Source: Candidatus Microgenomatus sp.
GTDB taxonomy: Bacteria > Patescibacteriota > Minisyncoccia > UBA6257 > GWB1-50-10
DNA: 64,000 bases
Reading direction: 5' to 3'
Assembly: GCA_020724805.1 (NCBI GenBank)
Contig: DYGI01000001.1
Location: 239,157 to 303,156 of the forward strand
The position numbers and the translations under genes were made by a program. Positions 5,912 through 38,641 of this stretch are shown one piece after another. Each line of letters begins with the position of its first letter. Position 1 is the first letter of the stretch. Below the pieces are notes generated by a model. That model saw nothing but the letters and a program-made list of their open reading frames with translations, had not been told where the DNA came from and made no database searches.

Positions 5912-6070
5912 AATATCACCTTCGTTTGTTTTAGTTATATGGGGTTATGCTGCGCGCACTATATCACCGTGCCTACATATTGACAAGATGGTGATGCCGT
6001 GGGATACATTGTGACAGTACTACCCTATAGGAAATCCTATATTTCACAACAACTAAAAGGAAAAATCGCC

Positions 6071-7612
6071 ATGAAGCGATTATTCGCAGTATTAGCGGTG
6101 CTGTGGTGGTGCGGCGAGCGGAGCATGGCGCAGCATATTGTTTCCGCAATCCGCACCGTCCGCGTCGCCGAACGCATCGAGGCATACAGTGCTGAAGGGG
6201 TGTTCATGGGGGCCTTTAAGGCATCTCTTCTGAACACCGTGTACCCGGTGCCGACCATCATCGGAGACCAATTCCTCGATTCGAAAGATCTCCGGCGGAC
6301 CGATTCCGCATCGGTGGGAACCGGTGCATGGCGTGTCGAAATGAACACCTCGGCGGATAGCATCAGCCGCTATCTCGTCATCATAAAGACGGTGCCCGCG
6401 ATGACCGTTCCCGCGAGCATCAATACCGATTTCCGGGTTCCGACATGGGTTACGAATCGGGTGCGCGTTGCGGAAAGTTTTTTCCGTGACGATGTGCCGG
6501 TCGTGAACTCCGGTCTCGACACGATCTTCGCAAGTGCAAGCTATCAAACCTCCACCCTTCAATTTCCGTCCGTGACCGGACAGGTGAATCAATGGGTACT
6601 GTGGGTCTCCTATATGTATGGAGAAGAAGGGCACCTTGTGCTCTTTTTCGACCAAGTGGTTGCCCCAGGAGGTGTGGTGTTGGAAAACGGAGAAGCAGGG
6701 GCTGATGTAACGGCTCCCGGTGCTCCTTCGGGTATGACGCTCACCGCGACTTCCGCCACCTCGGCGGATGCTCGCGCAACTGCACCGGCAGACGCCGATG
6801 TGGGAGGCGTGGTATTCGAACTTGACACCTCGCCGGCATTTACCAACCCAACACGAGTGATCGCATTCGCGACTCCAGGAGTGGAGGTGGTCAATACCTT
6901 CATTAATCTTGCGCCATCGACGCTGTATTACTGCAGGGCGGCGGCGCGCGACGTATCGGCAAACCAAGGAACATTTTCCGCGGTCGATACGGCGATGACC
7001 TTCACCTCAACGGGGAGTGGACTACCGGGAGCACCTACCAGTTTTGTGCTTACCGGAGCCTCATCTTCATCGGTGGTAGCGGTGTTCGAGCACGGTGTGG
7101 GCGCTATGTATACCGAAGTGCAACTTACCGAAGGGCTTTCTTTCGGAAGTTCGTACTCCGTGCAATTGGTTGCGGCGACCCCAGGAGCTCCCGGATTCGC
7201 GATTTTTACGGGGCTTCCGGCAAACCGAACCTTTGCGGGGAGAGCGCGCTCGGTGAACCAGGACGGACTTTCGGCATATGCGCCGCAGGACACCGGACGA
7301 ACATTCACCGTGACGACCGGCGTGGAGAAGTGGAGTGAAGCGCCGCATGCGTTTGCGCTCCACGGCAACTTCCCGAATCCATTCAATCCCACGACCATGA
7401 TCCGCTACGATGTGGGGGAAGAGGCAGTTGTGAGCATTACGGTGTACGACGTGCTCGGACGGACGATGGACGAACTGCTCTTGCGAGAACTGCGGGGCCC
7501 CGGCCGTTACGACGTGACGTGGAACGCTTCAGCGCATCCGAGCGGCATCTACTTTTGCCGAATGGAAGCGGGAAGGTTTACCGCGACGACGAAGATGCTT
7601 CTTGTGCGGTAG
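6071..7612 (+). CDS. secreted protein with T9SS-type (Por_Secre_tail-like) C-terminal sorting domain
   Basis: ATG 6071 with AAGGA SD. Signal peptide MKRLFAVLAVLWWCGERSMA. C-terminal ~80 aa FPNPFNPTTMIRYDVGEEAVVSITVYDVLGRTMDELLL...GIYFCRMEAGRFTATTKMLLVR matches the T9SS CTD consensus. Confidence 0.6.
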   Translation: MKRLFAVLAVLWWCGERSMAQHIVSAIRTVRVAERIEAYSAEGVFMGAFKASLLNTVYPVPTIIGDQFLDSKDLRRTDSASVGTGAWRVEMNTSADSISRYLVIIKTVPAMTVPASINTDFRVPTWVTNRVRVAESFFRDDVPVVNSGLDTIFASASYQTSTLQFPSVTGQVNQWVLWVSYMYGEEGHLVLFFDQVVAPGGVVLENGEAGADVTAPGAPSGMTLTATSATSADARATAPADADVGGVVFELDTSPAFTNPTRVIAFATPGVEVVNTFINLAPSTLYYCRAAARDVSANQGTFSAVDTAMTFTSTGSGLPGAPTSFVLTGASSSSVVAVFEHGVGAMYTEVQLTEGLSFGSSYSVQLVAATPGAPGFAIFTGLPANRTFAGRARSVNQDGLSAYAPQDTGRTFTVTTGVEKWSEAPHAFALHGNFPNPFNPTTMIRYDVGEEAVVSITVYDVLGRTMDELLLRELRGPGRYDVTWNASAHPSGIYFCRMEAGRFTATTKMLLVR

Positions 7613-12282: not shown

Positions 12283-13578
12283 GTGGAAGGAGAGTTTATC
12301 TCCGATGAGGAGGTGGAAGCGTATGAGCGGCGCGCAGATCCGGTGCGGCGCTCGGCGCGATGGTCTCTCGCCGCGGTTGCCGCGGCGTTTGCGCTCATAG
12401 GGGCCGCGTATTTGTGGGGAGCGTGGGGAGGCGGGAGTAAACTTACCGCATCGCTTCTTGGTGATGCAGGCGAAAAAGGTGAGGTCTTTATGCTGAAAAG
12501 CGCAGCCAGCGATGCGAACGCTCAGATATCCCAAGGAAACATCGCTGCTTTTTCCGCCGCGTGTGGCTACGAAAGCGGTCCTTCGACCAGTCCTTCGTTG
12601 CACTCAGGACAAGCAATTTCAGTTGTATTTAGTGAAATTGCTTGGATGGGGACGGAGGAAGGGGCGCAGTATGAATGGATAGAAATCGCGAACACCGGCA
12701 ATGCGCCCGCGGATATGAGTGGGTGGAGCGTGGTGGATAAGGATGAGCAGATACAGTTTTTATTTTCGAAAAGCGCGAACATCCCGGCGGGCGGCTTTAT
12801 GCTTTTTGCGCGGAGCGCGGATCGGGTAGGGAGCGTGAAGGCTGATTTCCGTTACACTGGCAATCTGAAAAATGAGGACGAAGGCTTGCGACTTTTCAAT
12901 GAGAAGTGTGAGGTGATGGACGAAGTACTCGCCGCGCCAAAGTGGCCGGCGGGGGATGTAAAAACCAAGAGAACTATGGAGAGGAACTTCGTGACGAAGA
13001 GCTGGCATACCTCAGCGGAAGTGGGTGGAACACCAAAAGCGGCGAATTCTCGCGGAATTGACGGGGGAAATAAAAAAGTAGAAGCGGATAGCACAGAGGT
13101 GGCGGCGACATCTACTCCCCCTCATCCATCCCCGACTCAGGGAATGGCGAGTTCGACGGGCTCACCACAGGTGGTAATAAGCGAAGTGATGGCGGGGAAA
13201 GATGGTGCGGCGAATTGGGATTTCGTAGAGCTTCATAACGCGGGGACAAGCGCGGTGAATCTCACCGGGTGGAGTGTAAAAAAGAAAAGTTCCACAGGAA
13301 ATGAATCGGCGCTCGTGACCTCATCGCGGTTTGAAGGGAAAACAATTTCCGCGGGCGGCTATTTACTTCTCGCCCACCCGGACTATACCGGCGTGCCCGC
13401 GGCGGACGTGGTGTGGCCTAAGTCGTATGTGCTCGCATACACAAATAATGCGGTGGTGCTCTACGGTGCGAATGGCGTGAAGGCAGATGAAATATCATGG
13501 ACGGAAATTCCGAAAGGACAATCATACGCGGAAATAAACGGTGCGTGGGCGGTGTCTTTTCCGACACCCGGGCAGTAG
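12283..13578 (+). CDS. membrane-anchored protein with two lamin-tail (LTD) domains
   Basis: GTG start. TM WSLAAVAAAFALIGAAYLWGAW. Two LTD-like blocks (SVVFSEIAWMG...WIEIANTGNAPADMSGWSV and QVVISEVMAG...WDFVELHNAGTSAVNLTGWSV). Confidence 0.6.
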   Translation: MEGEFISDEEVEAYERRADPVRRSARWSLAAVAAAFALIGAAYLWGAWGGGSKLTASLLGDAGEKGEVFMLKSAASDANAQISQGNIAAFSAACGYESGPSTSPSLHSGQAISVVFSEIAWMGTEEGAQYEWIEIANTGNAPADMSGWSVVDKDEQIQFLFSKSANIPAGGFMLFARSADRVGSVKADFRYTGNLKNEDEGLRLFNEKCEVMDEVLAAPKWPAGDVKTKRTMERNFVTKSWHTSAEVGGTPKAANSRGIDGGNKKVEADSTEVAATSTPPHPSPTQGMASSTGSPQVVISEVMAGKDGAANWDFVELHNAGTSAVNLTGWSVKKKSSTGNESALVTSSRFEGKTISAGGYLLLAHPDYTGVPAADVVWPKSYVLAYTNNAVVLYGANGVKADEISWTEIPKGQSYAEINGAWAVSFPTPGQ

Positions 13579-26785: not shown

Positions 26786-26812
26786 CGACTGGCAATTGCC
26801 AGTCGTATTTTT

Positions 26813-26814
<2 letters not shown>
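26786..26814 (+). terminator. perfect 20-nt palindrome plus T-run abutting the 16S 5' end (terminator-like or processing stem)
   Basis: CGACTGGCAATTGCCAGTCG followed by TATTTTTT. Lies between the rRNA promoter and the mature 16S start. Confidence 0.4.
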
Positions 26815-28301
<1,487 letters not shown>

Positions 28302-28509
28302 TAGTACACTTATCTTTTTCATTCCGAAGGGAGGGAGAAAGATAGCGAGCGAAAGATAGGAGGAGAGTGGAACGCGAACTCGTTTTTCGTTCCGCTCTCA
28401 GCCAGATCACGCGAATCCGTGAGGATTCAACAGGTGTTGGCCACTCAGCCTTAAGTTGGTGGCTCTAGGACAACGAAAAAAGTTTTTGGTGGTATACTGA
28501 AAATCAAAC

Positions 28510-29678: not shown

Positions 29679-31394
29679 ATGATCAATCTCCCGAACGAGA
29701 AATTGAAAGAAATCGTAGTTCGTGCGGGTGCGGTGGATGAAACGATGTTCGACGCGGTAGGAGAAGAAGCCGCGCGGAAACGCCAAAGCCCCGTCGAGAT
29801 CCTCATTTCGCGCGGACTCATCTCGAAAGATTATTTCCTTATATTGGTGGCGAAAGCGCTCGGGGTTGAGCGTGTGAATTTAGGTGTGGTAAAGATTGAC
29901 GAACAAGTACTTCATCTACTTCCCGAGGATGTGGCGCGTCGAAGGAAGGTGATTCCGTTCGGCGCGGAGCCCGACGGGCGTTACAAGGTGGCGATGGAGG
30001 ACCCCACCGATCTTGAGACCATCGACTTTTTGACGTTGCGGCTCAATGGTCCTGTGAAGCCGTATCTCGCGGACGATGACGATTTAAACCGCGGTTTCAC
30101 GGTCTACCAGAAGCGCCTTACACAGGACTACAAGAAAGTCATTGAAGAGAGCGTGCAGGAATCCCTGCGGTCCAAAACGCAGGGAGGGCTGGAAGAGGCC
30201 GCGGAGGACCTTCCTATCGTTGCTATCGTCGACAATCTCCTCGAATATGCCATCTCTTCCCGCGCGTCTGATGTGCATTTCGAGATGCTCGACGACGGCA
30301 TTCTCGTGCGGTACCGCATCGACGGTATTTTGCACGAGATTATCCGAATGCCGAAAGAGGTGCACCCGGCGGTCGTCGCGCGCATTAAGATACTTTCGAA
30401 CCTTCGCGTCGACGAGCACACGCACCCTCAGGACGGACGTTTCCGATACAAGCTTGGAGGGAACGTTATCGACGTTCGCGTATCGGTCATCCCGACATTC
30501 TATGGAGAAAAAATGGTCCTTCGGCTTCTCTCCGCGGCACAGAAGCCGCTTTCGCTCGGCGAGCTCGGCATCATGGAGAACGATTCGAAGTCGATAGAAA
30601 CCGCGATTTCAAAAACCTACGGTATGGTGCTCGCGTGCGGACCCACCGGTTCCGGTAAAACCACAACGCTCTATTCCATCTTGAATCTCTTGAATAAGCC
30701 GGACGTGAACATTGTGACCATCGAAGACCCTATCGAGTACGATATGCGCTATGTGAACCAGATGCAGGTGAACGTGGCGGCCGGCATTACGTTCGCATCG
30801 GGGCTCCGCTCGGTGCTTCGCCAGGATCCGAACGTTATCATGGTCGGTGAGGTGCGTGATGCTGAGACCGCGAACATTTCGGTACAGGCGGCTTTGACCG
30901 GCCACCTGGTGCTTTCATCGCTCCACACGAATGATGCGCCGACCGTGGTGCCGCGCCTCATTGATATGGGTATCCCGCCATTTTTAGTCGCGGCGGTATT
31001 GAACGACATCATCGCGCAGCGCCTCGTGCGGAAGGTTCACTTGGACTGCATCGAATCCTACGTGCCAGAGAAAAGCGTGCTCGAAACCATTGCGCGCGAG
31101 CTTGAATCGCAGGGAGTGGATCCGCGTACCGTGAAATTGCCGAAAACGTTCTATCGTGGAAAGGGATGCACGGCGTGCGGTGGTACGGGGTATTTTGGAC
31201 GTCTCGGCATCTTCGAAGTACTCCCGGTTTCCGAAGCGGTGCGAAAACTCATCATTTCGGACGAATTCAACCTTGATAATCTCCGGAAGGTCGCGCGTGC
31301 GGAGGGAATGGTGACCATGTTCGAAGACGGACTTCGAAAAGTGGAACGGGGCATTACCACCATCGCGGAATTGTTTAGAGTGATAAGAGAGTAA
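29679..31394 (+). CDS. pilB: type IV pilus assembly ATPase PilB (GspE family)
   Basis: 571 aa. N-terminal GspII_E_N-like region. Walker A GPTGSGKTTT. Tetracysteine CTACGGTG. Confidence 0.92.
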   Translation: MINLPNEKLKEIVVRAGAVDETMFDAVGEEAARKRQSPVEILISRGLISKDYFLILVAKALGVERVNLGVVKIDEQVLHLLPEDVARRRKVIPFGAEPDGRYKVAMEDPTDLETIDFLTLRLNGPVKPYLADDDDLNRGFTVYQKRLTQDYKKVIEESVQESLRSKTQGGLEEAAEDLPIVAIVDNLLEYAISSRASDVHFEMLDDGILVRYRIDGILHEIIRMPKEVHPAVVARIKILSNLRVDEHTHPQDGRFRYKLGGNVIDVRVSVIPTFYGEKMVLRLLSAAQKPLSLGELGIMENDSKSIETAISKTYGMVLACGPTGSGKTTTLYSILNLLNKPDVNIVTIEDPIEYDMRYVNQMQVNVAAGITFASGLRSVLRQDPNVIMVGEVRDAETANISVQAALTGHLVLSSLHTNDAPTVVPRLIDMGIPPFLVAAVLNDIIAQRLVRKVHLDCIESYVPEKSVLETIARELESQGVDPRTVKLPKTFYRGKGCTACGGTGYFGRLGIFEVLPVSEAVRKLIISDEFNLDNLRKVARAEGMVTMFEDGLRKVERGITTIAELFRVIRE

Positions 31395-31523
31395 GGATAT
31401 GAATCCCGTTAGCGGCAACTAATATCATGTTCATGTTTCACCGTATAAATCCAAAAAATCGTAATATAAAGGTCTCGTGGCACAACCACGGTCGCCTTGG
31501 GGCGACCTACCTCTAACGGGATG
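31395..31523 (+). repeat. intercistronic structured element, copy B (SD + mini-ORF MNPVSGN + two GC hairpins + start codon of pilC)
   Basis: AAGGAT-ATGAATCCCGTTAGCGGCAACTAA, then AAAGGTCTCGTGGCACAACCACGGTCGCCTTGGGGCGACCTACCTCTAACGGG-ATG. About 85% identical to copy C outside the central loop. Confidence 0.6.
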
Positions 31524-32729
31524 AAATATCGTTATATTGCATCACAGCAGGATGGACGCGTGGTTGAGGGAGACCTCGAGGCGCGTGATATGACCGAGGC
31601 GCTCGCCACTCTCGGGAAAAACCAATTAAAACCGGTGAGTTTGAAACCGCTCGAAGAAGCGGCCAAGCGGTCATTTGCGCTGTTCAGAGGGAAAATGACG
31701 TTGACTGATCTCGTGTTCATGTCGAAATACCTCTCGCTCATGTTGAAAGTGGGAACGGGACTTTTGGAAGCAATAAATATTCTCGTGGCTGACATCAAAA
31801 AGCCCGCGGTGCGCGACATTCTTCTTGAGATTCGCACTACCTTGGAGCAAGGTCAGCCGTTCTACACCACATTCGCGAAGTATCCGCGTGTTTTCGGGAG
31901 CGTGTATGCAAACCTCGTAAAAGCAGGAGAAGCATCGGGTGACCTTGAACATGTGTTTGAGGATCTCACCGAGGATCTCACCAAACAAAAAGACCTCAAG
32001 GACAGGGTGCGCGGCGCCTTGATATACCCAATTCTTCTTCTCATTGGGTCAGTGCTTATCCTCTCGTTTCTTGTGGGGTTCGCGCTCCCAAAGATCGCAG
32101 ACGTCTTTCTCCAAGGCGGATTCGAGCCTCCACTTTTCTCGCGCATCGTCTTTTCCGTCGGGCTTTTCTTCAGTGATTACGGGATCTATTTCCTAGGAAT
32201 TTTTCTTGTGCTGGTCGTGATGGTGTGGCGACTCTATATTGCGTCCCCATTCTTCAAGAAATTTATTTTAGGAATATTTGCCGAGATTCCCCTCATTCGT
32301 GATGTGGTGCAGAAGATCGCGCTCCAGCGATTTGCGTCTACCTTCTCCTCGCTTATCCGCGCGGGAATGCCCATTACCGACGCCTTGGAGATTACCGCAA
32401 CCGCGGCGGGGAATGTGGAACTTTCGGAGTCATTAATGCGCATTTCGCGCGAGGGTCTCATGAAAGGGCTCACCATCGGCGAGGCGTTCAAGCGCGAACC
32501 TTTCTTTCCGCAGACCGTCGCGAGCCTCATGTCCATCTCTGAAAAGGCGGGGCATTTAGATGAAGTGCTGGGAACTCTCTCCGATTTCTACGCCAAAGAA
32601 ATAGACGCGTCGGTAAAATCACTCGTGTCATTCTTGGAACCGCTTCTCCTCGTCTTGATTGGTGCGGTCATCGGCGTTATCGCGCTTGCCATTATTGTGC
32701 CTATCTATCAATTGACCACCCAGTTTTAA
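31521..32729 (+). CDS. pilC: type IV pilus inner-membrane platform protein PilC (GspF family)
   Basis: MKYRYIASQQDGRVVEGDLEA... typical PilC N-terminus. Two GspF repeats with TM helices. Confidence 0.9.
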   Translation: MKYRYIASQQDGRVVEGDLEARDMTEALATLGKNQLKPVSLKPLEEAAKRSFALFRGKMTLTDLVFMSKYLSLMLKVGTGLLEAINILVADIKKPAVRDILLEIRTTLEQGQPFYTTFAKYPRVFGSVYANLVKAGEASGDLEHVFEDLTEDLTKQKDLKDRVRGALIYPILLLIGSVLILSFLVGFALPKIADVFLQGGFEPPLFSRIVFSVGLFFSDYGIYFLGIFLVLVVMVWRLYIASPFFKKFILGIFAEIPLIRDVVQKIALQRFASTFSSLIRAGMPITDALEITATAAGNVELSESLMRISREGLMKGLTIGEAFKREPFFPQTVASLMSISEKAGHLDEVLGTLSDFYAKEIDASVKSLVSFLEPLLLVLIGAVIGVIALAIIVPIYQLTTQF

Positions 32730-32785
32730 AAAATTGATTCTTATTGAAACATTGAAAATTGAATCATTATGAAGATTGAAAGGTT
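32730..32785 (+). repeat. AT-rich TTGAAR-unit element R1
   Basis: aaaaattgattcttattgaaacattgaaaattgaatcatt runs into the ATG of the four-helix-bundle gene. Same unit family as R2-R5. Confidence 0.6.
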
Positions 32786-33152
32786 CGAAGATCTACCGAT
32801 ATGGAAAGATGCGCGCGTACTTATTCAAATAATCTACAAACTCTCAGCCCCATGGAAAGATTTTTCATTGCGAGACCAAGTAAGACGAGCGGCAGTTTCC
32901 GCGATTTCCAACATCTCTGAAGGGTTTGAGCGCGGTTCTAATCGGGAATTTATACAATTTCTCTATATTGCGAAAGGCTCATTAGGAGAACTTCGCGCGC
33001 AACTTTACGTTGCATATGATGTGCGAATGGTAGGTAAAGAAAATTTTGAAAAATGTCTCGCGCAATGCGAGGTAGTTTCAAGGGGCATCAGCCGTTTCGT
33101 GGGATATTTGAGAAAATCCCCACTTACCAAAGAAAGGCACAAATCCAGATGA
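32769..33152 (+). CDS. four-helix-bundle protein (23S rRNA IVS protein / Avd-like family)
   Basis: 127 aa. ...AISNISEGFERGSNREFIQFLYIAKGSLGELRAQLYVA matches the TIGR02436/PF05635 family. Confidence 0.75.
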   Translation: MKIERFEDLPIWKDARVLIQIIYKLSAPWKDFSLRDQVRRAAVSAISNISEGFERGSNREFIQFLYIAKGSLGELRAQLYVAYDVRMVGKENFEKCLAQCEVVSRGISRFVGYLRKSPLTKERHKSR

Positions 33153-34324
33153 ACAAGGAATCTTTCAATTCTTCAATGGTTCAATCGCGTGGCGCGCGAA
33201 GCGCGTTCACGCTCATAGAAATGTTGGTGGTGGTTGCACTCACCGTTGCTATTGCGACCGCAGGTTTTCTCGGCCTTTCGGGATATCGCAACAAGCAAGC
33301 GCTCGAATCGGGCCTCGATGAACTCCGCGCGGCGGTGGAGGCAACGAAGCGTCGTTCGGTAGCGCAGGAGGAAGGAAGCCGGTGGGGGATGCGGTTTACA
33401 AACGCGACTTCCGGCATTTCCTCATACTCTGTCTTTCAGGGAAGCTCATATTCCACGAGCGGTATCGACCGTACCTACTCGTTCCGTGACCCCGTGGGGT
33501 TCATGAATCCGTCCGCTTCATCCACCTACGATGTGGTGTTTGCCCCGCTCTCCGGAGCGCTCTCGGAAAATAAAGTGTTCACGCTCGGCGGGGGCTTAAA
33601 AGGTTTTATCGGAGACCTTATTCTTCGCACTATCGGGTCCATCACCGCGCGCACCGATCAAGACGTGGTGGGATATTGGCACTTGGATGAAGGAACGGGA
33701 ACCGCCGCCTACGACTCCTCTGGTTACGGAAATACCGGCACACTCACGAACGGTCCGACGTGGCAATCAGGGACGAGCTGTAGGGCGGGAGGATGTCTAA
33801 ATCTAAACGGTTCGACGCATTACATACAGTACGGGAACGTTTTGAATATGGGTCTTGATGACTGGACGATTTCTGCGTGGGTCAATACAACAGATTCCTC
33901 GCTGACTAATCGGTATTATTTGAGCAAATCAAGAGCGGCAGCGCAAAACTACCGCTACGGTTTATTTATTAGCTCGAGCACACAATCGGGAGGGATATTT
34001 ATGCAGGGGAATGGGGGTGCCGATGTGGCGGTGAGCGGGAATGTAGCCGTCAATAACGGCCAATGGCACCACTTAGTCTCCGTTTTTGACAGAGACAACA
34101 ACGCCTCACTCTACATTGATGGCGCTTTGAATGCGAGCGGAACTATTTCGCAATGGGCAAGCGCAAATATGGTATCAAACAACCCTTTTAGAATAGGGTC
34201 GTACACTGCGTCTGATAATACTACGCCAACGCTATTTTTCCCCGGATCGGTGGACGAATTTCGTGTCTGGAGCCGGGCGCTCTCCGCGAGCGAGATTGAA
34301 GCGCTCTATAATGACCTTAAGTAA
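33149..34324 (+). CDS. type IV pilin-like protein with C-terminal LamG (concanavalin-like lectin) domain
   Basis: RSAFTLIEMLVVVALTVAIATAG pilin-type N-terminus (A at -1). LamG hallmarks WHLDEGTGTAAYDSSGYGNTGT...VDEFRVWSRALSASEI. Confidence 0.7.
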   Translation: MNKESFNSSMVQSRGARSAFTLIEMLVVVALTVAIATAGFLGLSGYRNKQALESGLDELRAAVEATKRRSVAQEEGSRWGMRFTNATSGISSYSVFQGSSYSTSGIDRTYSFRDPVGFMNPSASSTYDVVFAPLSGALSENKVFTLGGGLKGFIGDLILRTIGSITARTDQDVVGYWHLDEGTGTAAYDSSGYGNTGTLTNGPTWQSGTSCRAGGCLNLNGSTHYIQYGNVLNMGLDDWTISAWVNTTDSSLTNRYYLSKSRAAAQNYRYGLFISSSTQSGGIFMQGNGGADVAVSGNVAVNNGQWHHLVSVFDRDNNASLYIDGALNASGTISQWASANMVSNNPFRIGSYTASDNTTPTLFFPGSVDEFRVWSRALSASEIEALYNDLK

Positions 34325-34400
34325 ATGAAATTGAAAATTAAAAAATTGAAAATTGAACGATTGAATAGCAAATTTTTCAATCTTTCAATCCTTCAATCAC
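34325..34400 (+). repeat. AT-rich TTGAAR-unit palindromic element R2 (overlaps annotated 5' end of next CDS)
   Basis: ATGAAATTGAAAATTAAAAAATTGAAAATTGAACGATTGAATAGCAAATTTTTCAATCTTTCAATCCTTCAATCAC. Imperfect palindrome of tandem subrepeats. Confidence 0.6.
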
Positions 34401-35695
34401 ATTCGCGCTCCGGTCAATCATTGGTAGAAGTCGTCATCGGGCTCGCCATTGGGGCGATACTCATGGGTACCGCGGCCTTTGCGGTGACCACCATGCTCAA
34501 AACCAACCTCACTTCGGAAAAGTCTCAATTCGCCTCACGGTTCGCGCAGGCGCTTGCGGACAATGTACGCTCCTATGCGGTGGGGAATTGGGATTCGCTC
34601 TACAGCCTTACCAAGGCCACGAGTTCACATTATTTTTTGAACGCGTCCGGCACCACATTCTTTGTGGTGGAAGGCGAAGAGGGGATGTGGGATGGGGACG
34701 TAACTAGCGGACTCGTGGGACAGTGGAAATTCGACGAAGTGGAGACCACGACCAGCACGACCACCTATGATGCAACAGGCAATAGAAACCATGGGACTCT
34801 CGGGGGTAGCCCTACGAGAAGCACATCAACATGCAAAATTTCCAATTGCCTCACTTTCAACGGATCTAGCAATGGTGTCAGTGTTTCCGATAGTGCCACT
34901 TTCGACTTCGGGGCCGGAGATTTTTCGGTGGCGGTTTGGGTTAATCCTGCGGGAGGAGGAACGGGAGATACCCAAGACATGCTTGTTTCCAAAACATCCT
35001 ATCCGAGCGGTTTTAACAATCGTGGCCCCGGTTTCTACCTTGGAAGAGCCAACGATAGTTATTGGTCATTCATGGTGGCCGACAGCCCGGATGTGGGAGG
35101 TAATAAAGTGAATACCGGACAGAATCCTTCAGGATGGTTTCATCTTGCGGGCATTTCGGAAGGAGGAGTTCTTAAAATGTATTTGAACGGCACGCTTATG
35201 AGCACCACTACAAGGACCGTGGGGTCGGTAGATAATAGCGTGAATCTTTATTTCGCATACCGTCCTAGTGCGTGGTATTTCGGAGGAAGTTTGGACGACG
35301 TTCGTCTTTATAACCGTGCGCTCTCCGCAGATGAAGTTCGCCAACTTTGGAACTCGGGAGTGTATGAGCGTTTCTTTACCATTGAAAATGTGTGTCGCAC
35401 GAACGATGCCTCGAGCACTATCGCTTCAACCGCACCGTGCAGCGGAACACTCGAAGACGGTTCAACCCAATGGATTACGAGCTATACGCAGTGGGTCACG
35501 GGTGCGGGAACGAACGAAGTGACGATTCCTTCCATCATTGCGCGGTGGCAAAATGCGGTATTTCACCAGAGCGACTGGTCGGGAGGCGCGGCGAGCGAAG
35601 GCGCGGTCGTAGAGCCTACCAACAAGTTCTCAAGTTCCACGAATGCTTCGACGACCGGCGGGGTCATACAGATACAGAATCTCTCACAGCAATAA
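34325..35695 (+). CDS. type IV pilin-like protein with LamG domain (second paralog; true start uncertain)
   Basis: Cleavage-type motif SGQSLVEVVIGLAIGAILMG (G-1, E+5). LamG motifs WKFDE...GNRNHGTL...LDDVRLYNRALSADEV. The first 25 codons are encoded by repeat R2. A TTG start near 34363 is possible. Confidence 0.65.
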   Translation: MKLKIKKLKIERLNSKFFNLSILQSHSRSGQSLVEVVIGLAIGAILMGTAAFAVTTMLKTNLTSEKSQFASRFAQALADNVRSYAVGNWDSLYSLTKATSSHYFLNASGTTFFVVEGEEGMWDGDVTSGLVGQWKFDEVETTTSTTTYDATGNRNHGTLGGSPTRSTSTCKISNCLTFNGSSNGVSVSDSATFDFGAGDFSVAVWVNPAGGGTGDTQDMLVSKTSYPSGFNNRGPGFYLGRANDSYWSFMVADSPDVGGNKVNTGQNPSGWFHLAGISEGGVLKMYLNGTLMSTTTRTVGSVDNSVNLYFAYRPSAWYFGGSLDDVRLYNRALSADEVRQLWNSGVYERFFTIENVCRTNDASSTIASTAPCSGTLEDGSTQWITSYTQWVTGAGTNEVTIPSIIARWQNAVFHQSDWSGGAASEGAVVEPTNKFSSSTNASTTGGVIQIQNLSQQ

Positions 35696-35700
35696 AGAGG

Positions 35701-35780
35701 TTATTGAAGAATTGAGAGATTAAAGAATTGAAGAATTAGGAGATTAATAAAGAATTTTTCAATCTTTCAATTTTCAATAC
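35701..35780 (+). repeat. AT-rich TTGAAR-unit palindromic element R3
   Basis: attgaagaattgagagattaaagaattgaagaatt ... aatttttcaatctttcaattttcaat. Left and right halves are reverse complements. Confidence 0.6.
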
Positions 35781-35805: not shown

Positions 35806-36207
35806 ATGGCAACGATAAGGAACTTCCATGAAAAGTTAGAACAAGATCTCCAACGGGTAACCGCGGAGATCGAGCGCCGCAGGGAACGCGCACCCGAAAT
35901 CGCATCACGCGAAGTGGTGAGGCAGTCCATTATTGCGGCAATACCTCAAGCACCTGTTTCGGAGAGGGTCGAGGCCTCTCCCTCTGGTTCTTCACCGGCC
36001 GCGCCGGAGCGAATTCCCGCATATCTTAATGAGGAATCTCCTGAAATAAAGGCGGAGGTGGAACGACTCGTATCGCTGGCGTTCGAGAAGGGCATTTCAT
36101 CGGCAGTGGAAGAGGCGGCAAAAAAGTCCCCGTTCGTACTTGATGCGTTCCACGATGCGCTTGCGGATAAACTTCTGCCGGAATTGGAGAAAAGAGGAAT
36201 AATTTAA
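35806..36207 (+). CDS. hypothetical protein (133 aa, predicted helical)
   Basis: ORF between R3 and R4. Charged, helical composition. No motif recognised. Confidence 0.45.
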   Translation: MATIRNFHEKLEQDLQRVTAEIERRRERAPEIASREVVRQSIIAAIPQAPVSERVEASPSGSSPAAPERIPAYLNEESPEIKAEVERLVSLAFEKGISSAVEEAAKKSPFVLDAFHDALADKLLPELEKRGII

Positions 36208-36264
36208 AAATTGAAGAATTGAAGCATTGAATGATTAATTTTTCAATTTTCAATTTTCAATTTA
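36208..36264 (+). repeat. AT-rich TTGAAR-unit palindromic element R4
   Basis: aaaaattgaagaattgaagcattgaatgattaatttttcaattttcaattttcaattt, ending 4 nt before ATG 36269. Confidence 0.6.
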
Positions 36265-36268
36265 TTTT

Positions 36269-38641
36269 ATGACCCCATTCACCATCATTTTTCTTGTGGT
36301 GCTCGCCGGTGCGGGCGTCGGTTTTTATTGGTGGACACGGAGGAATACGCGTCGGCGTCTTGCGGAAGGGCTTCGGAAGAAGTTGTTTCTTATCCGGTTT
36401 CCGCGTGCTACGGGAGAAAAAGCCGGAAATGCGGAAGAAGTGGCGCGCGCGGTCGCGCTTTCTGAGCAGTTGGTGACCGCGCTCGCGGTTCCCGGTGAGT
36501 CCATCACTTTTGAGATCGCGGTACCTTACGTAGGGGAAGAGATACATTTTTACGCAGCAGTTTCCCGCGGAATGGCAGAACCTTTTATTCGACAAGTGCA
36601 ATCGCTGTGGAGCGACGCACGGGTGGAACCGGCGGATGATTACAACGTGTTCCACTATGGAGGAACCGTCGCAGGCGTGACGCTTCGTGAATCTTCCCGC
36701 TTCCTTCTCCCGCTGCGTACCTATCGCGAGGTGGGCAGCGACACATTCCTTTCCATTCTCGGCGGTCTCACGAAAGTGAATGCAGTAGGAGAAGGGTGTG
36801 CCATACAGTATGTGGTGAGGCACGCTAAGAAAGACGCAAAGCGTGAACTTACTGGAGTGCGAAAGGGGCTAGAAAAGGGGATGCCGCTCTCACATTTTCT
36901 CGATGAAAAAAAAGCTGCGCTCGCCGATCTTAAACATGCGGTTGCACCCCAGAAGAAGGACGAGAAAAAAGGTGCACAGGAGCCGGTGCGCGATGAACGA
37001 GGGGAAAAGTTGGTGGAGAGCAAACTCTCGCGACCGCTCTTCGAAGTGAATGTGCGCGTGGTCGTTTCGGCGCCCACCCCTCACCGCGCGGAAGGGTTGC
37101 TTTCCGAGCTCACTACTGGCTTCACACAGTTCGACGTGCCGGAAAGGAATAGCTTCAAGTTGGTGAGACCGAAACAGATGAATACGTTCGTGCGCCAGTT
37201 TTCGTTCCGCGAATTTTCTCCGGAAGACGCCATGGTGTTGAATGCAGAAGAATTTGTGAGCATTTTCCACTTGCCGACTCCGTGGACCATACTTCCGCGC
37301 ATACGCATGGTGAAAAGCCGGGAAGCGCCACCGCCGGCGAAACTTCCTTCCCAGGGAATGCTCCTTGGGGAGAGCGTCTACCGTGGCGAGCGTCGTCCCG
37401 TAAAACTTGCGGACGAGGATCGCCGGCGTCATCTCTATCTCGTAGGGCAGACCGGCACCGGGAAAAGCACGCTCATCACCTCGCTTGCCGCGCAGGATAT
37501 GGCAAACGGGAAAGGGCTTGCGCTCATCGATCCTCATGGCGACTTGGTTGAGCGCCTTATGGCGCTTGTGCCGCCGGCGCGGATGAATGATGTGGTGGTA
37601 TTCGACCCATCCGACCTCGAACTTCCCGTAGGGGTGAACATGATAGAGCACGACCCCGCGAACCCGGAGCAAAAAACGTTCATTGTGAACGAGCTTCTTG
37701 GAATATTCGACAAACTCTACGATCTCAAAGCGACCGGAGGGCCGATGTTCGAACAATATATGAGAAATGCGCTTCTCCTTCTCATGGAAGATGCCGCGCA
37801 TGAACCCGCCACACTCATGGAAGTGCCGAGGGTATTCACCGACGGGGCGTGGCGCGCACAAAAACTTGCGCGTATCACAAATCCCACCGTGCAGGATTTC
37901 TGGGAGAAGGAAGCGGTAAAAGCGGGCGGCGAAGCGGCGCTTGCAAACATTACGCCTTACGTGACCTCGAAATTCGCAGCGTTCACCGCGAACGATTATA
38001 TGAGGGTCATTGTGGGCCAAACGCGCTCCGCATTCAATTTTCGGGAGCTTATGGACGGGGGAAAAATACTTTTTGTGAATTTGGCGAAAGGGAAAATAGG
38101 AGATCTCAACGCGTCGCTTCTCGGTATGATTATTGTGGGTAAGATCCTTATGGCAGCACTCTCCCGCGGAGACATGCAGGAGCAATCGCGCCGCGATTTC
38201 AACCTTTTCATCGACGAGTTCCAGAATTTCACCACCGATTCCATTGCAACCATTCTTTCGGAGGCGCGGAAGTATCGGTTGAATCTCACCATTGCCCACC
38301 AGTTTTTGGGTCAGCTTACCGAGAAGATCAGAGATGCGGTATTCGGCAACGTTGGTTCGCTTCTCGTGTTCCGCGTGGGGGCGCCGGATGCGGAGCTTTT
38401 GGCAAAACAGCTTGGCGGCGCATTCACTCCCGACGATCTTACCAACCTCGATAATTTTCGCGGCTCCCTGAAGCTTTTGGTGGATGGAGAAACCGCGCCT
38501 CCGTTCTCGCTTGCGCTTACGCCGGCGCTTCATGGAGACGACTCGCTTCGCACATCAATTAAAGAACGTTCCCGTACAAGATACGGGAGACCGCGCGAGG
38601 AAGTGGAGAGGGAAATACGGGAGCGGCTTCGGAAAATATGA
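36269..38641 (+). CDS. membrane-anchored T4SS-type ATPase (VirB4/TraG-VirD4-like, FtsK-HerA superfamily)
   Basis: 790 aa. N-terminal TM. About 350-aa unknown domain. Walker A LYLVGQTGTGKSTL. Walker B/TraG-D_C-like block NLFIDEFQNFTTD...ARKYRLNLTIAHQFLGQL. Confidence 0.75.
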   Translation: MTPFTIIFLVVLAGAGVGFYWWTRRNTRRRLAEGLRKKLFLIRFPRATGEKAGNAEEVARAVALSEQLVTALAVPGESITFEIAVPYVGEEIHFYAAVSRGMAEPFIRQVQSLWSDARVEPADDYNVFHYGGTVAGVTLRESSRFLLPLRTYREVGSDTFLSILGGLTKVNAVGEGCAIQYVVRHAKKDAKRELTGVRKGLEKGMPLSHFLDEKKAALADLKHAVAPQKKDEKKGAQEPVRDERGEKLVESKLSRPLFEVNVRVVVSAPTPHRAEGLLSELTTGFTQFDVPERNSFKLVRPKQMNTFVRQFSFREFSPEDAMVLNAEEFVSIFHLPTPWTILPRIRMVKSREAPPPAKLPSQGMLLGESVYRGERRPVKLADEDRRRHLYLVGQTGTGKSTLITSLAAQDMANGKGLALIDPHGDLVERLMALVPPARMNDVVVFDPSDLELPVGVNMIEHDPANPEQKTFIVNELLGIFDKLYDLKATGGPMFEQYMRNALLLLMEDAAHEPATLMEVPRVFTDGAWRAQKLARITNPTVQDFWEKEAVKAGGEAALANITPYVTSKFAAFTANDYMRVIVGQTRSAFNFRELMDGGKILFVNLAKGKIGDLNASLLGMIIVGKILMAALSRGDMQEQSRRDFNLFIDEFQNFTTDSIATILSEARKYRLNLTIAHQFLGQLTEKIRDAVFGNVGSLLVFRVGAPDAELLAKQLGGAFTPDDLTNLDNFRGSLKLLVDGETAPPFSLALTPALHGDDSLRTSIKERSRTRYGRPREEVEREIRERLRKI

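Follow-up and report, generated by a model that had tools for sequence, protein, structure and literature searches.

The window examined here is the whole stretch of DNA that was analyzed, 64 kb (64,000 nucleotides) of Patescibacteria (Jorgensenbacteria-like) core chromosome, and within it the open reading frame at 36269..38641 of the forward strand, which begins with ATG and encodes 790 amino acids, was confirmed as real. The features of this gene, and of the small gene that precedes it, are as follows.

35806..36207, + strand: small partner gene (small133), 133 aa, helical and cytoplasmic, 61 nt upstream of the ATPase gene
36269..38641, + strand: DUF8128/coupling-protein-type ATPase gene, 790 aa (open reading frame, homologs, structure model)
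36275..36343, + strand: N-terminal transmembrane (TM) anchor, residues ~3-25 (sequence; helix 3-35 in the model)
36374..37318, + strand: N-domain, Pfam DUF8128, residues 36-350 (PF26449 annotation, model, Foldseek)
37319..38563, + strand: coupling-protein-type nucleotide-binding domain (NBD), residues ~351-765 (Pfam, TrwB 1e9r, family HMM ranking)
37445..37468, + strand: Walker A motif GQTGTGKS, residues 393-400 (100% conserved in 168 sequences)
37667..38056, + strand: all-alpha insertion separating Walker A from Walker B, residues ~467-596 (modeled secondary structure)
38201..38302, + strand: Walker B motif LFIDEF (D649, E650) with candidate arginine finger R667 and sensor Q678 (HMM alignment to TrwB)

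The layout of the protein is unusual, comprising one TM helix, a DUF8128 domain of ~310 residues and an NBD of the kind found in coupling proteins (T4CPs), complete with an all-alpha insertion, and it matches none of the five T4CP architecture classes laid out in a 2020 review (PMC7434980). Structure prediction for the full-length protein returned a pLDDT of 87.5 and a pTM of 0.77. The N-terminal hydrophobic segment is directly followed by the basic cluster RRNTRRRLAEGLRKK, which implies that the remainder of the ATPase is cytoplasmic, and at least one TM window lies ahead of the N-domain in 161 of 168 family members. The all-alpha insertion sits where T4CPs have their all-alpha domain and contains the strongly conserved block TGGPMFEQYMRNALLLLMED. 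A scan for promoters and terminators around the gene gave counts not above those of shuffled sequence.

The original prediction of a conjugation-type ATPase was borne out, as the protein is a member of the FtsK/HerA superfamily. The Pfam models T4SS-DNA_transf (residues 369-687), TrwB_AAD_bind and TraG-D_C all score above gathering on the NBD, and the NCBIfam matches include TraD, although the best model of the TraD/TraG/VirD4 kind (TIGR03743) reaches 48.7 bits, below its cutoff of 366. The closest solved structure by sequence is TrwB (1e9r, E 2.9e-5), to which the NBD superimposes in Foldseek with a TMt of 0.64-0.67 and 17-18% identity over ~430 aligned columns. When the family HMM was set against reference proteins, TrwB scored 35.6 bits (E 2e-10) versus no more than 2.5 bits for four VirB4 references (TrwK, PrgJ, TcpF and Bsu848), and the FtsK-type proteins TcpA and TcpB scored ~10 bits against the HMM of the family NBD. 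The corresponding hhalign probabilities were 96% for TrwB and 3-13% for the VirB4s. Furthermore, the NCBIfam VirB4 model TIGR00929 yields 14.8 bits, short of its cutoff of 643, and covers Walker A alone, and the Pfam scan of the ATPase found no match to AAA_10, CagE_TrbE_VirB or the FtsK_SpoIIIE motor signature (PF01580). The catalytic residues align one-to-one with those of TrwB (K399 with K136, D649/E650 with D356/E357, R667 with R375 and Q678 with Q386), and all five are invariant in 168 family sequences. On these sequence comparisons, the NBD is assigned to the coupling-protein (TrwB/VirD4) type and not to the VirB4 type.

The N-domain is another matter. The original prediction had described residues 40-400 as unrecognizable, and in a standard scan of the Pfam and NCBIfam libraries this stands, since the matches are weak and confined to residues ~342-716; the domain is nonetheless catalogued as DUF8128 (PF26449), a Pfam entry without assigned function. 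This assignment was taken from the precomputed annotation of a database protein that is 100% identical to the ATPase, with no scoring of our own; PF26449.1 is annotated on that protein and on all 120 of the homologs listed. No mention of PF26449 or DUF8128 was found in our literature search. The AlphaFold model of the N-domain (pLDDT 90.9, pTM 0.88) has an alpha/beta fold with a disordered loop at residues 218-237, and when Foldseek was run on it against the PDB, as had been proposed, the significant matches, which make up the top 14, were exclusively VirB4/TrwK chains of R388 (E 1e-7 to 2e-5, TMq ~0.5), with subsequent matches at the level of noise. Full-length VirB4 is also collinear with the full-length ATPase model, in keeping with the earlier description of the order of TM helix, N-domain and NBD as VirB4-like. 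By hhalign, the match of the N-domain to a VirB4 N-terminal domain profile has a probability of at most 1.4%, the VirB4 profile being a shallow one built on 12 homologs. As such, we describe the N-domain as resembling the VirB4 N-terminal domain in its predicted fold, on structural evidence. Within it, Q180, R314, E328 and H334 are invariant in 168 sequences.

The protein thus compares with different conjugation ATPases in different respects. With TrwB of R388 (1E9R) it shares the NBD, the catalytic residues, the all-alpha insertion and a small upstream gene, although sequence similarity is confined to the motif regions; TrwB, however, places at least two TM helices straight before its NBD and has no folded N-domain (PMC7434980), whereas the ATPase has one helix and a 310-aa domain, and TrwB is encoded beside a relaxase on a conjugative plasmid, which the ATPase is not. 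VirB4 (TrwK, 7O43 and 8RTD) is like the ATPase in its two-domain layout, similar size and N-domain fold, but lacks sequence similarity to it in either domain outside Walker A.

The surroundings of the gene were examined here and in 83 related loci. PilB (29679-31394) and PilC (31497-32729) lie on the same strand and 5' of the ATPase, followed by a pair of Laminin_G_3 genes resembling pilins (33053-35695). The terminal place in a pilus operon, which the original prediction had regarded as atypical, is real at this locus, but it is not a feature of the family. The pilus setting is a local accident, because PilB/PilC occur within 8 kb of the ATPase in just 3 of the 83 loci. The density of genes with a prepilin motif is no higher close to the ATPase (0.06-0.07 per 10 kb) than at greater distance (0.064-0.074), and in one locus (L003) the ATPase and its small partner are still paired with PilB/PilC absent. 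No T4SS or relaxase gene lies within the 64-kb window, and none is found among the recurrent neighbors of the ATPase in the 83 loci.

The small gene directly upstream is a far more constant companion. A homolog of small133, with its conserved C-terminal motif PFxLDAFHDALxDKLxxELKKRG, directly precedes the ATPase in 52 of 74 loci, and a further 16 carry in that place a different, tightly coupled open reading frame of 150-180 aa, bringing the total over both upstream families to about 68 of 74. The two families show no homology to one another by hhalign, and small133 has no match in Pfam or NCBIfam. In two loci (L073 and L077) the partner is fused in frame to the ATPase and replaces the TM helix, its C-terminus running into the beginning of the N-domain. 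Auxiliary proteins generally accompany T4CPs (PMC12857230). Small genes also directly precede trwB on R388 and pcfC on pCF10.

The relatives that can best be placed in a known context are found in Bacillota. An 886-aa protein (WP_121549396) of the B. subtilis plasmid NZ_CP032854 aligns with the ATPase by hhalign over 633 columns, N-domain included (E 6e-34), and together with two further ATPases, of the B. cereus group (P0356) and Paenibacillus (P0350), it scores 56-69 bits with the N-domain HMM and 116-153 bits with the NBD HMM; PF26449 is annotated on many relatives of these proteins. As judged from these alignments, the Bacillota ATPase is homologous to the whole of the Patescibacteria protein. 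The Bacillota DUF8128-DUF87 ATPases are ~25% identical to it and differ in lacking the N-terminal TM helix, and downstream of them there is always a Replic_Relax relaxase together with TcpC, TcpE and an AAA_10 VirB4, in the order ATPase, Replic_Relax, TcpC, TcpE, VirB4, whereas the Patescibacteria ATPase is without these genes. No partner of the small133 type was found upstream of the Bacillota ATPases. Their slot, beside the relaxase, is that occupied in pCW3 by TcpA, which stands before tcpC-tcpE-tcpF; unlike the family described here, TcpA is of the FtsK/SpoIIIE type and has no DUF8128 domain. As far as our literature searches reach, the Bacillota DUF8128 ATPases are uncharacterized.

Several other roles can be considered for such a protein. 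The VirB4-like body plan raises the question of whether the ATPase is simply a VirB4, serving assembly and translocation in a divergent type IV secretion system, and the arrangement of TM helix, N-domain and NBD does match that of VirB3-VirB4 fusions, full-length VirB4/TrwK chains head the Foldseek list for the whole model, and the significant fold matches of the N-domain are all VirB4/TrwK. We nevertheless consider this highly improbable. The NBD bears no VirB4 signature by TIGR00929, AAA_10, CagE_TrbE_VirB or the family HMM; VirB3, VirB6, VirB8 and TrsD-like genes are absent from the window and from related loci; and the Bacillota homolog shares its module with a true AAA_10 VirB4. Moreover, Patescibacteria have a separate, monophyletic VirB4 that is encoded with T4SS genes (PMC12102498). 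A repair helicase of the HerA type partnered by a NurA nuclease can be regarded as effectively refuted, despite a Pfam DUF87 (HerA central domain) match of 32 bits on the NBD and the presence of 4d2i among the whole-model Foldseek matches (E 3e-12): NurA, whose presence nearby was part of what the original prediction had named as refuting it, is not found among the neighbors, nor is any other nuclease gene, HerA is a weaker match to the NBD than TrwB (TMt 0.49), HerA chains are absent from the significant fold matches of the alpha/beta, VirB4-like N-domain, and the ATPase is anchored in the membrane.

A contribution to type IV pili or competence, for example as an accessory motor pulling pilus-captured DNA inward, is suggested by the place of the ATPase after PilB, PilC and two Laminin_G_3 genes both here and in its closest relatives, by a Gracilibacteria homolog that also lies near pilin-like genes, and by the documentation of natural competence in Patescibacteria (PMC10633639). 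Across the related loci, however, neither PilB/PilC adjacency nor prepilin-gene density is enriched, and the pairing of ATPase and partner persists where PilB/PilC are missing. As a property of the family this role is accordingly rejected, and for the present protein we hold it to be very unlikely. We know of no type IV pilus system in which an ATPase of the T4CP type is a core component. It is also conceivable that the ATPase acts in a membrane-proximal process other than secretion, such as FtsK-like chromosome clearance or export for envelope glycosylation, given that it is near-universal, chromosomal and seemingly single-copy, belongs to the FtsK/HerA superfamily, and has RodA, YceG, DnaX, PMT_2, GtrA and GT2 glycosylation genes as recurrent neighbors. 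None of these neighbors, however, is present in more than roughly a third of the loci, their recurrence may reflect synteny at the level of the class, the ATPase lacks the FtsK_SpoIIIE signature, and its closest characterizable homologs reside in conjugation modules. FtsK is furthermore mentioned in papers on Saccharibacteria, so at least some Patescibacteria possess FtsK, and we judge such a role to be distinctly unlikely. P-loop/TM proteins of ~825 aa near the ATPase in two loci (L045 and L063) were considered as FtsK and rejected, as they are DUF4012 proteins.

The reading that we favor, and believe to be probably correct, is that the ATPase is a membrane-anchored motor of the T4CP type, an orphan on the chromosome that is related to the ATPase filling the coupling slot in Bacillota. 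The Patescibacteria lineage would have lost the link to a relaxase and T4SS and acquired a TM anchor together with a small helical partner, whose gene lies directly upstream. The TM helix would tether the ATPase ring, presumably a hexamer, to the membrane, and the VirB4-like N-domain may provide a platform for oligomerization or for docking of the small partner, which could serve as an adaptor or regulator analogous to the auxiliary proteins of T4CPs. Hydrolysis of ATP, with the participation of K399, D649/E650, R667 and Q678, would then move a DNA or protein substrate to a membrane channel, possibly that of a Patescibacteria T4SS encoded elsewhere. A bolder proposal, which we regard as rather unlikely, is that the DUF8128 ATPases constitute a third, hitherto unrecognized lineage of conjugation ATPases, joining the body plan of VirB4 to the motor of a coupling protein, that was domesticated together with an adaptor in Patescibacteria; they may in that case represent a living intermediate in the descent of coupling proteins from a VirB4-like ancestor. 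Were this so, Patescibacteria would possess a near-universal chromosomal translocation motor, and whatever it moves (DNA or proteins passing between symbiont and host cell, for instance) would lie at the heart of their episymbiotic lifestyle. Confirmation of the VirB4-like fold would itself bear on the kinship of the two signature ATPases of conjugation.

As to its breadth, the ATPase is an ordinary member of a large, catalogued and widespread family of "orphan T4CPs". Its homologs comprise more than 6,000 clusters at 90% identity, and the N-domain alone accounts for 789 clusters at 50% identity, which places the architecture far beyond chance. Long DUF8128 proteins (1,045-1,773 aa) carry C-terminal extensions without a Pfam match. 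According to Quinonero-Coronel et al. 2025 (PMC12102498), nearly every Patescibacteria genome holds orphan homologs of VirD4-type T4CPs that are chromosomal and lie far from virB4, and the ATPase, a chromosomal protein that matches T4CP profiles, fits this description. The passages of that study consulted here give bulk counts of orphan T4CPs, and in them the DUF8128 N-domain, the VirB4-like fold, the small partner and the division into two paralogs do not appear. With the present work, what had been a bulk HMM count becomes a two-gene module open to testing, and the origin of the family can be traced to the slot of the coupling protein in Tcp-like conjugation modules of Gram-positive bacteria. 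The ultra-small Patescibacteria account for a considerable fraction of uncultivated bacterial diversity and depend on host cells. One of the two orphan paralog types now has an anatomy, consisting of a TM anchor, DUF8128, a TrwB-like site and a small partner; the second paralog type in Patescibacteria is soluble and carries a treble-clef zinc finger.

The gene under study encodes a 790-residue ATPase with an N-terminal transmembrane (TM) helix and a C-terminal nucleotide-binding domain (NBD), in which Walker A (GQTGTGKS, residues 393-400) and Walker B (LFIDEF, containing D649 and E650) are present. The gene and its immediate neighbors are:

32769-33152, + strand: four-helix-bundle "23S rRNA intervening sequence protein", overlapping the ORF at 33053-34324
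33053-34324 and 34325-35695, + strand: two pilin-like proteins of 423 and 456 aa
36269-38641, + strand: ATPase ORF, ATG start, 790 aa
38638-38641: ATGA, 4-nt overlap of the ATPase stop and the triosephosphate isomerase (TIM) start

Residues ~3-25 are hydrophobic and precede a basic cluster (RRNTRRRLAEGLRKK), so that by the positive-inside rule of membrane-protein orientation the rest of the ATPase is cytoplasmic. Pfam and NCBIfam scans matched the protein weakly, and at residues ~342-716 only: DUF87/HerA gave 32 bits, T4SS-DNA_transf 29.7 bits (residues 369-687), the TraD (SXT type) model 48.7 bits (curated cutoff 366), and the VirB4 model just 14.8 bits, confined to Walker A; TrwB_AAD_bind and TraG-D_C also matched the C-terminal part. 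The original prediction of a TM helix, an unrecognizable N-terminal domain and a conjugation-type NBD was an accurate description, and the N-terminal half went unmatched because PF26449 was not among the models scanned.

PF26449 carries the Pfam name DUF8128; neither designation appears in the papers searched. Homologues of the ATPase form at least 6,000 clusters at 90% identity, and the best 120 of these matches are all ~750-795 aa in length, each with precomputed PF26449 together with PF10412 and/or PF01935, and some with PF02534 or PF12696. An exhaustive search with the N-terminal region alone (residues 25-366) yielded 789 clusters at 50% identity, in which the region is nearly always N-terminal and the host proteins are mostly 750-930 aa. 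At least one TM segment precedes the N-domain in 161 of 168 family members, the exceptions being truncations, one borderline case and two fusions (loci L073 and L077). The ATPase thus typifies a very large family, catalogued (as DUF8128, or "T4SS DNA-binding domain-containing protein") but uncharacterized; among the matches listed, its closest database proteins come from MAGs of Candidatus Jorgensenbacteria, Brennerbacteria and Paceibacterota. The DUF8128 ATPases P0233, P0254, P0265, P0232 and P0245, the first three of which measure 1,694-1,773 aa, extend at the C-terminus by up to ~900 aa with no Pfam match.

An AlphaFold2 model built on an 88-sequence alignment was confident (pLDDT 87.5, pTM 0.77) and divides the chain as follows:

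Residues 3-35: TM helix
Residues ~37-345: alpha/beta domain, with a disordered loop at 218-237
Residues 364-380: beta-hairpin running into the P-loop
Residues 467-596: helical insertion
Remainder: other part of the RecA-like core

With the whole model, the best Foldseek matches in the PDB were full-length VirB4 (TrwK of R388; 8RTD, 7O42, 7O43; E to 7e-17), in alignments of 855-888 columns collinear over the entire ATPase chain. Their TMq was low (~0.3), which is consistent with a differing relative orientation of the domains. The R388 coupling protein TrwB (1E9R/1E9S) ranked next, over the C-terminal ~430 columns only and at 17-18% identity, with a much better local fit than VirB4 (TMt 0.64-0.67); HerA (TMt 0.49) and Cag-beta stood further down the list.

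To place the motor, HMMs of the N-domain and of the NBD were each built from 168 family members, and reference proteins were taken from the annotated plasmids R388, pCF10, pCW3 and one B. subtilis plasmid.

Scores of the NBD HMM
Sulfitobacter plasmid NBD-only protein: 310 bits
B. subtilis plasmid 886-aa "DUF87" protein: 153 bits
TrwB: 35.6 bits (E 2e-10)
TcpA, TcpB: ~10 bits
PcfC: 5.5 bits
VirB4-type TrwK, PrgJ, TcpF and Bacillus AAA_10 protein: <=2.5 bits, not significant

Probabilities from hhalign gave the same outcome (96% for TrwB, 3-13% for the VirB4s). In the HMM alignment the TrwB residues K136, D356-E357, R375 and Q386 pair one-to-one with K399, D649-E650, R667 and Q678 of the ATPase, none of which varies among the 168 sequences; Q180, R314, E328 and H334 of the N-domain are likewise 100% conserved. 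Because both comparisons favor TrwB and the catalytic residues are aligned and invariant, the motor is, as judged from sequence, of the coupling-protein type, intact and strongly constrained. The VirB4-like reading originally proposed from domain order survives for the body plan, as the collinear Foldseek alignments attest, but not for the motor, and the data do not favor a true VirB4. Nor do they favor an enzyme of the HerA/NurA type, the DUF87/HerA library match and the lower-ranked HerA structure notwithstanding.

The family extends into conjugation modules. Between a family profile and the 886-aa protein of the B. subtilis plasmid, the alignment spans 633 columns (query 85-765, E 6e-34), N-domain included; the N-domain HMM scored 56-69 bits on three Bacillota proteins, and many relatives of these carry precomputed PF26449. 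Three independent Bacillota loci share one gene order: DUF8128 ATPase, Replic_Relax relaxase-like protein, TcpC, TcpE and an AAA_10 ATPase of the VirB4 type (389 bits). Since the DUF8128 ATPases hold there the slot that in pCW3 belongs to the coupling protein TcpA, they are best read as an unrecognized coupling-protein type of monoderm conjugation systems, a function we infer from gene position. Unlike the Patescibacteria ATPase, the Bacillota proteins lack a TM helix. The pairing with Replic_Relax recurs on a B. thuringiensis plasmid and on Streptomyces pFRL4, whose ATPases, like a Natrinema plasmid protein, show recognizable likeness in the NBD only. A 2020 review distinguishes five architectures of type IV coupling proteins (T4CPs), none with a folded N-domain between TM segment and NBD (PMC7434980). 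The 395-aa NBD-only protein of a Sulfitobacter mediterraneus plasmid (NZ_CP081110; L084, 8989-10176) is 37% identical to the Patescibacteria ATPase domain and, at 310 bits, far closer than any Bacillota relative; its gene is adjoined by transposases and recombinases, and horizontal transfer may account for the likeness.

What is conserved beside the ATPase gene is a small co-directional gene immediately upstream, which in the window encodes a 133-aa helical protein. By iterated profile, its homologue precedes the ATPase in 52 of 74 loci with enough upstream DNA, and 16 of the other 19 have a different ORF of 150-180 aa in the same position (gap -3 to +19 nt). This second, unrelated family takes its place in ABY1-like lineages:

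ORF directly upstream of the ATPase: L038, L045, L046, L049, L054, L062, L063, L071, L074-L076, L078, L080, L081

Its members are disordered in the N-part and conserved in the C-part (...GEETAxKI...WLKIIPGVNKFFLEQEAKIKAD), and their genes show tight coupling to that of the ATPase. Both families lack a TM segment and any Pfam or NCBIfam match, and in both the N-part is variable or disordered and the C-part helical and conserved. L073 and L077 encode the 133-aa-type protein and the ATPase as a single in-frame fusion, in which the C-terminus of the small protein runs into the beginning of the N-domain and no TM helix is present, confirming the cytoplasmic location of the N-domain. Fusion of two genes is a classic sign that their products interact physically. 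A small gene likewise lies directly upstream of the T4CP gene in R388 and pCF10, and T4CPs act together with small auxiliary proteins (2025 review, PMC12857230).

Immediately ahead of the small gene, and again ahead of the ATPase gene, is an AT-rich intergenic element of ~60 nt that contains an inverted repeat (TTGAAGAATTGAAG ... TTTTCAATTTTCAAT) and might serve as operator, promoter or hairpin:

35706-35766 and 36197-36265: AT-rich element
33165, 34385 and 50362, - strand: further copies

The window contains 7 copies of the core 12-mer (<=1 mismatch) where 0.49 would be expected, and 6 of the 7 fall within 33-36.3 kb.

The window is ordinary core chromosome, with genes for ribosomal protein L25, RF, aldolase, GAPDH, transketolase, UvrA/UvrB, ParA/ParB, GroEL, RelA, TIM, RodA, YceG and RpoB/RpoC, and neither a relaxase, VirB4 nor other T4SS gene anywhere in its 64 kb. 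On the same strand upstream of the ATPase lie genes for a response regulator, a pilin, PilB, PilC and the "23S IVP", then the two Laminin_G_3 pilin-like genes and the unannotated 133-aa gene. This setting had suggested a pilus operon, and a pilus or competence motor is accordingly a rival to be weighed. Across 83 loci (80 species-representative genomes of Paceibacteria-type and ABY1-type lineages, and three related contigs), only 3 have PilB/PilC at a distance of 8 kb or less from the ATPase, and a relaxed scan found 0.06-0.07 prepilin-motif genes per 10 kb near the ATPase versus 0.064-0.074 farther off in the same loci; the pilus setting is therefore an incidental, local juxtaposition, and the data do not favor such a motor. 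Only 5 of the 83 have the Laminin_G_3 genes and the gene run TIM - RodA - YceG - RpoB close to the ATPase. The ATPase-TIM overlap implies co-transcription, and possibly translational coupling, with a glycolytic gene in this lineage only. Other recurrent neighbors are divergent upstream PMT_2 glycosyltransferases (27 and 14 loci in two clusters), downstream DnaX (25), GtrA (13) and RodA (8), which may reflect either a functional link or class-level synteny; an FtsK-like or envelope role is not favored by the data. In 11 loci a conserved convergent protein of ~820-840 aa, with no significant Pfam match, lies ~165 bp downstream (e.g. L083, 6076-8598, - strand).

What emerges is a cytoplasmic protein held by an N-terminal anchor, whose N-domain resembles VirB4 in its modelled fold, whose catalytic site is intact and TrwB-like, and which has an all-alpha insertion; a small partner is tightly linked to it and in some loci fused. 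That this protein is a DUF8128-type ATPase of the T4CP lineage, and a homologue of the ATPase of Bacillota conjugation modules, is very probable. Like its relatives, it would assemble into a ring at the membrane, with the N-domain a presumed docking or oligomerization platform binding the small partner, itself a putative adaptor or regulator; ATP hydrolysis might then drive a DNA or protein substrate into a channel, possibly a T4SS encoded elsewhere. We regard such a coupling or translocation mechanism in Patescibacteria as tentative, at slightly under even chances, and identity and mechanism taken together as a reasonably likely explanation. The present analysis adds the VirB4-like modelled fold of DUF8128, the homology over the full length to the ATPase that holds the coupling slot in Tcp-like conjugation modules, a small partner that is conserved and in places naturally fused, and the incidental nature of the pilus setting.

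Orphan T4CPs have been described in these organisms. Quinonero-Coronel et al. (2025) counted 5,713 VirD4-type T4CP homologues in Patescibacteria, spread over 2,918 of 3,035 genomes, with virB4 nearby for only 148; they noted that the homologue in S. epibionticum was not essential, and suggested exaptation (PMC12102498). Wang et al. (2023) describe an essential Saccharibacteria T4SS without recognizable coupling and relaxase proteins (PMC10633639). We find a second Patescibacteria paralogue type, soluble, with the NBD from the start and a C-terminal treble-clef zinc finger (PF23477, "CxxC-x17-CxxC"):

P0388, P0393, P0394, P0396, P0401: zinc-finger paralogues, 544-707 aa, no TM helix, no DUF8128

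The two types together probably account for the ~2 T4CP homologues per genome reported in PMC12102498.

Several further observations concern the window itself:

5999-7612, + strand: 537-aa protein with a Por_Secre_tail (type IX secretion sorting) domain
12283-13578, + strand: 431-aa protein with lamin-tail domains
26808-28310, + strand: complete 16S rRNA gene, 1383 bits

The 16S rRNA gene stands alone, with no 23S or 5S adjoining it in the window, and the response-regulator, pilin and PilB cluster begins immediately downstream. The gene for the "23S rRNA intervening sequence protein" follows PilC and precedes the first Laminin_G_3 gene, a position from which it is absent in the related locus L001. 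The 423- and 456-aa proteins each have both a prepilin N-methylation motif and a Laminin_G_3 (concanavalin-like lectin) domain, give weak TafC-fimbrial matches, and could be adhesive minor pilins. The type IX sorting signal of the 537-aa protein is unexpected in a Patescibacteria genome.
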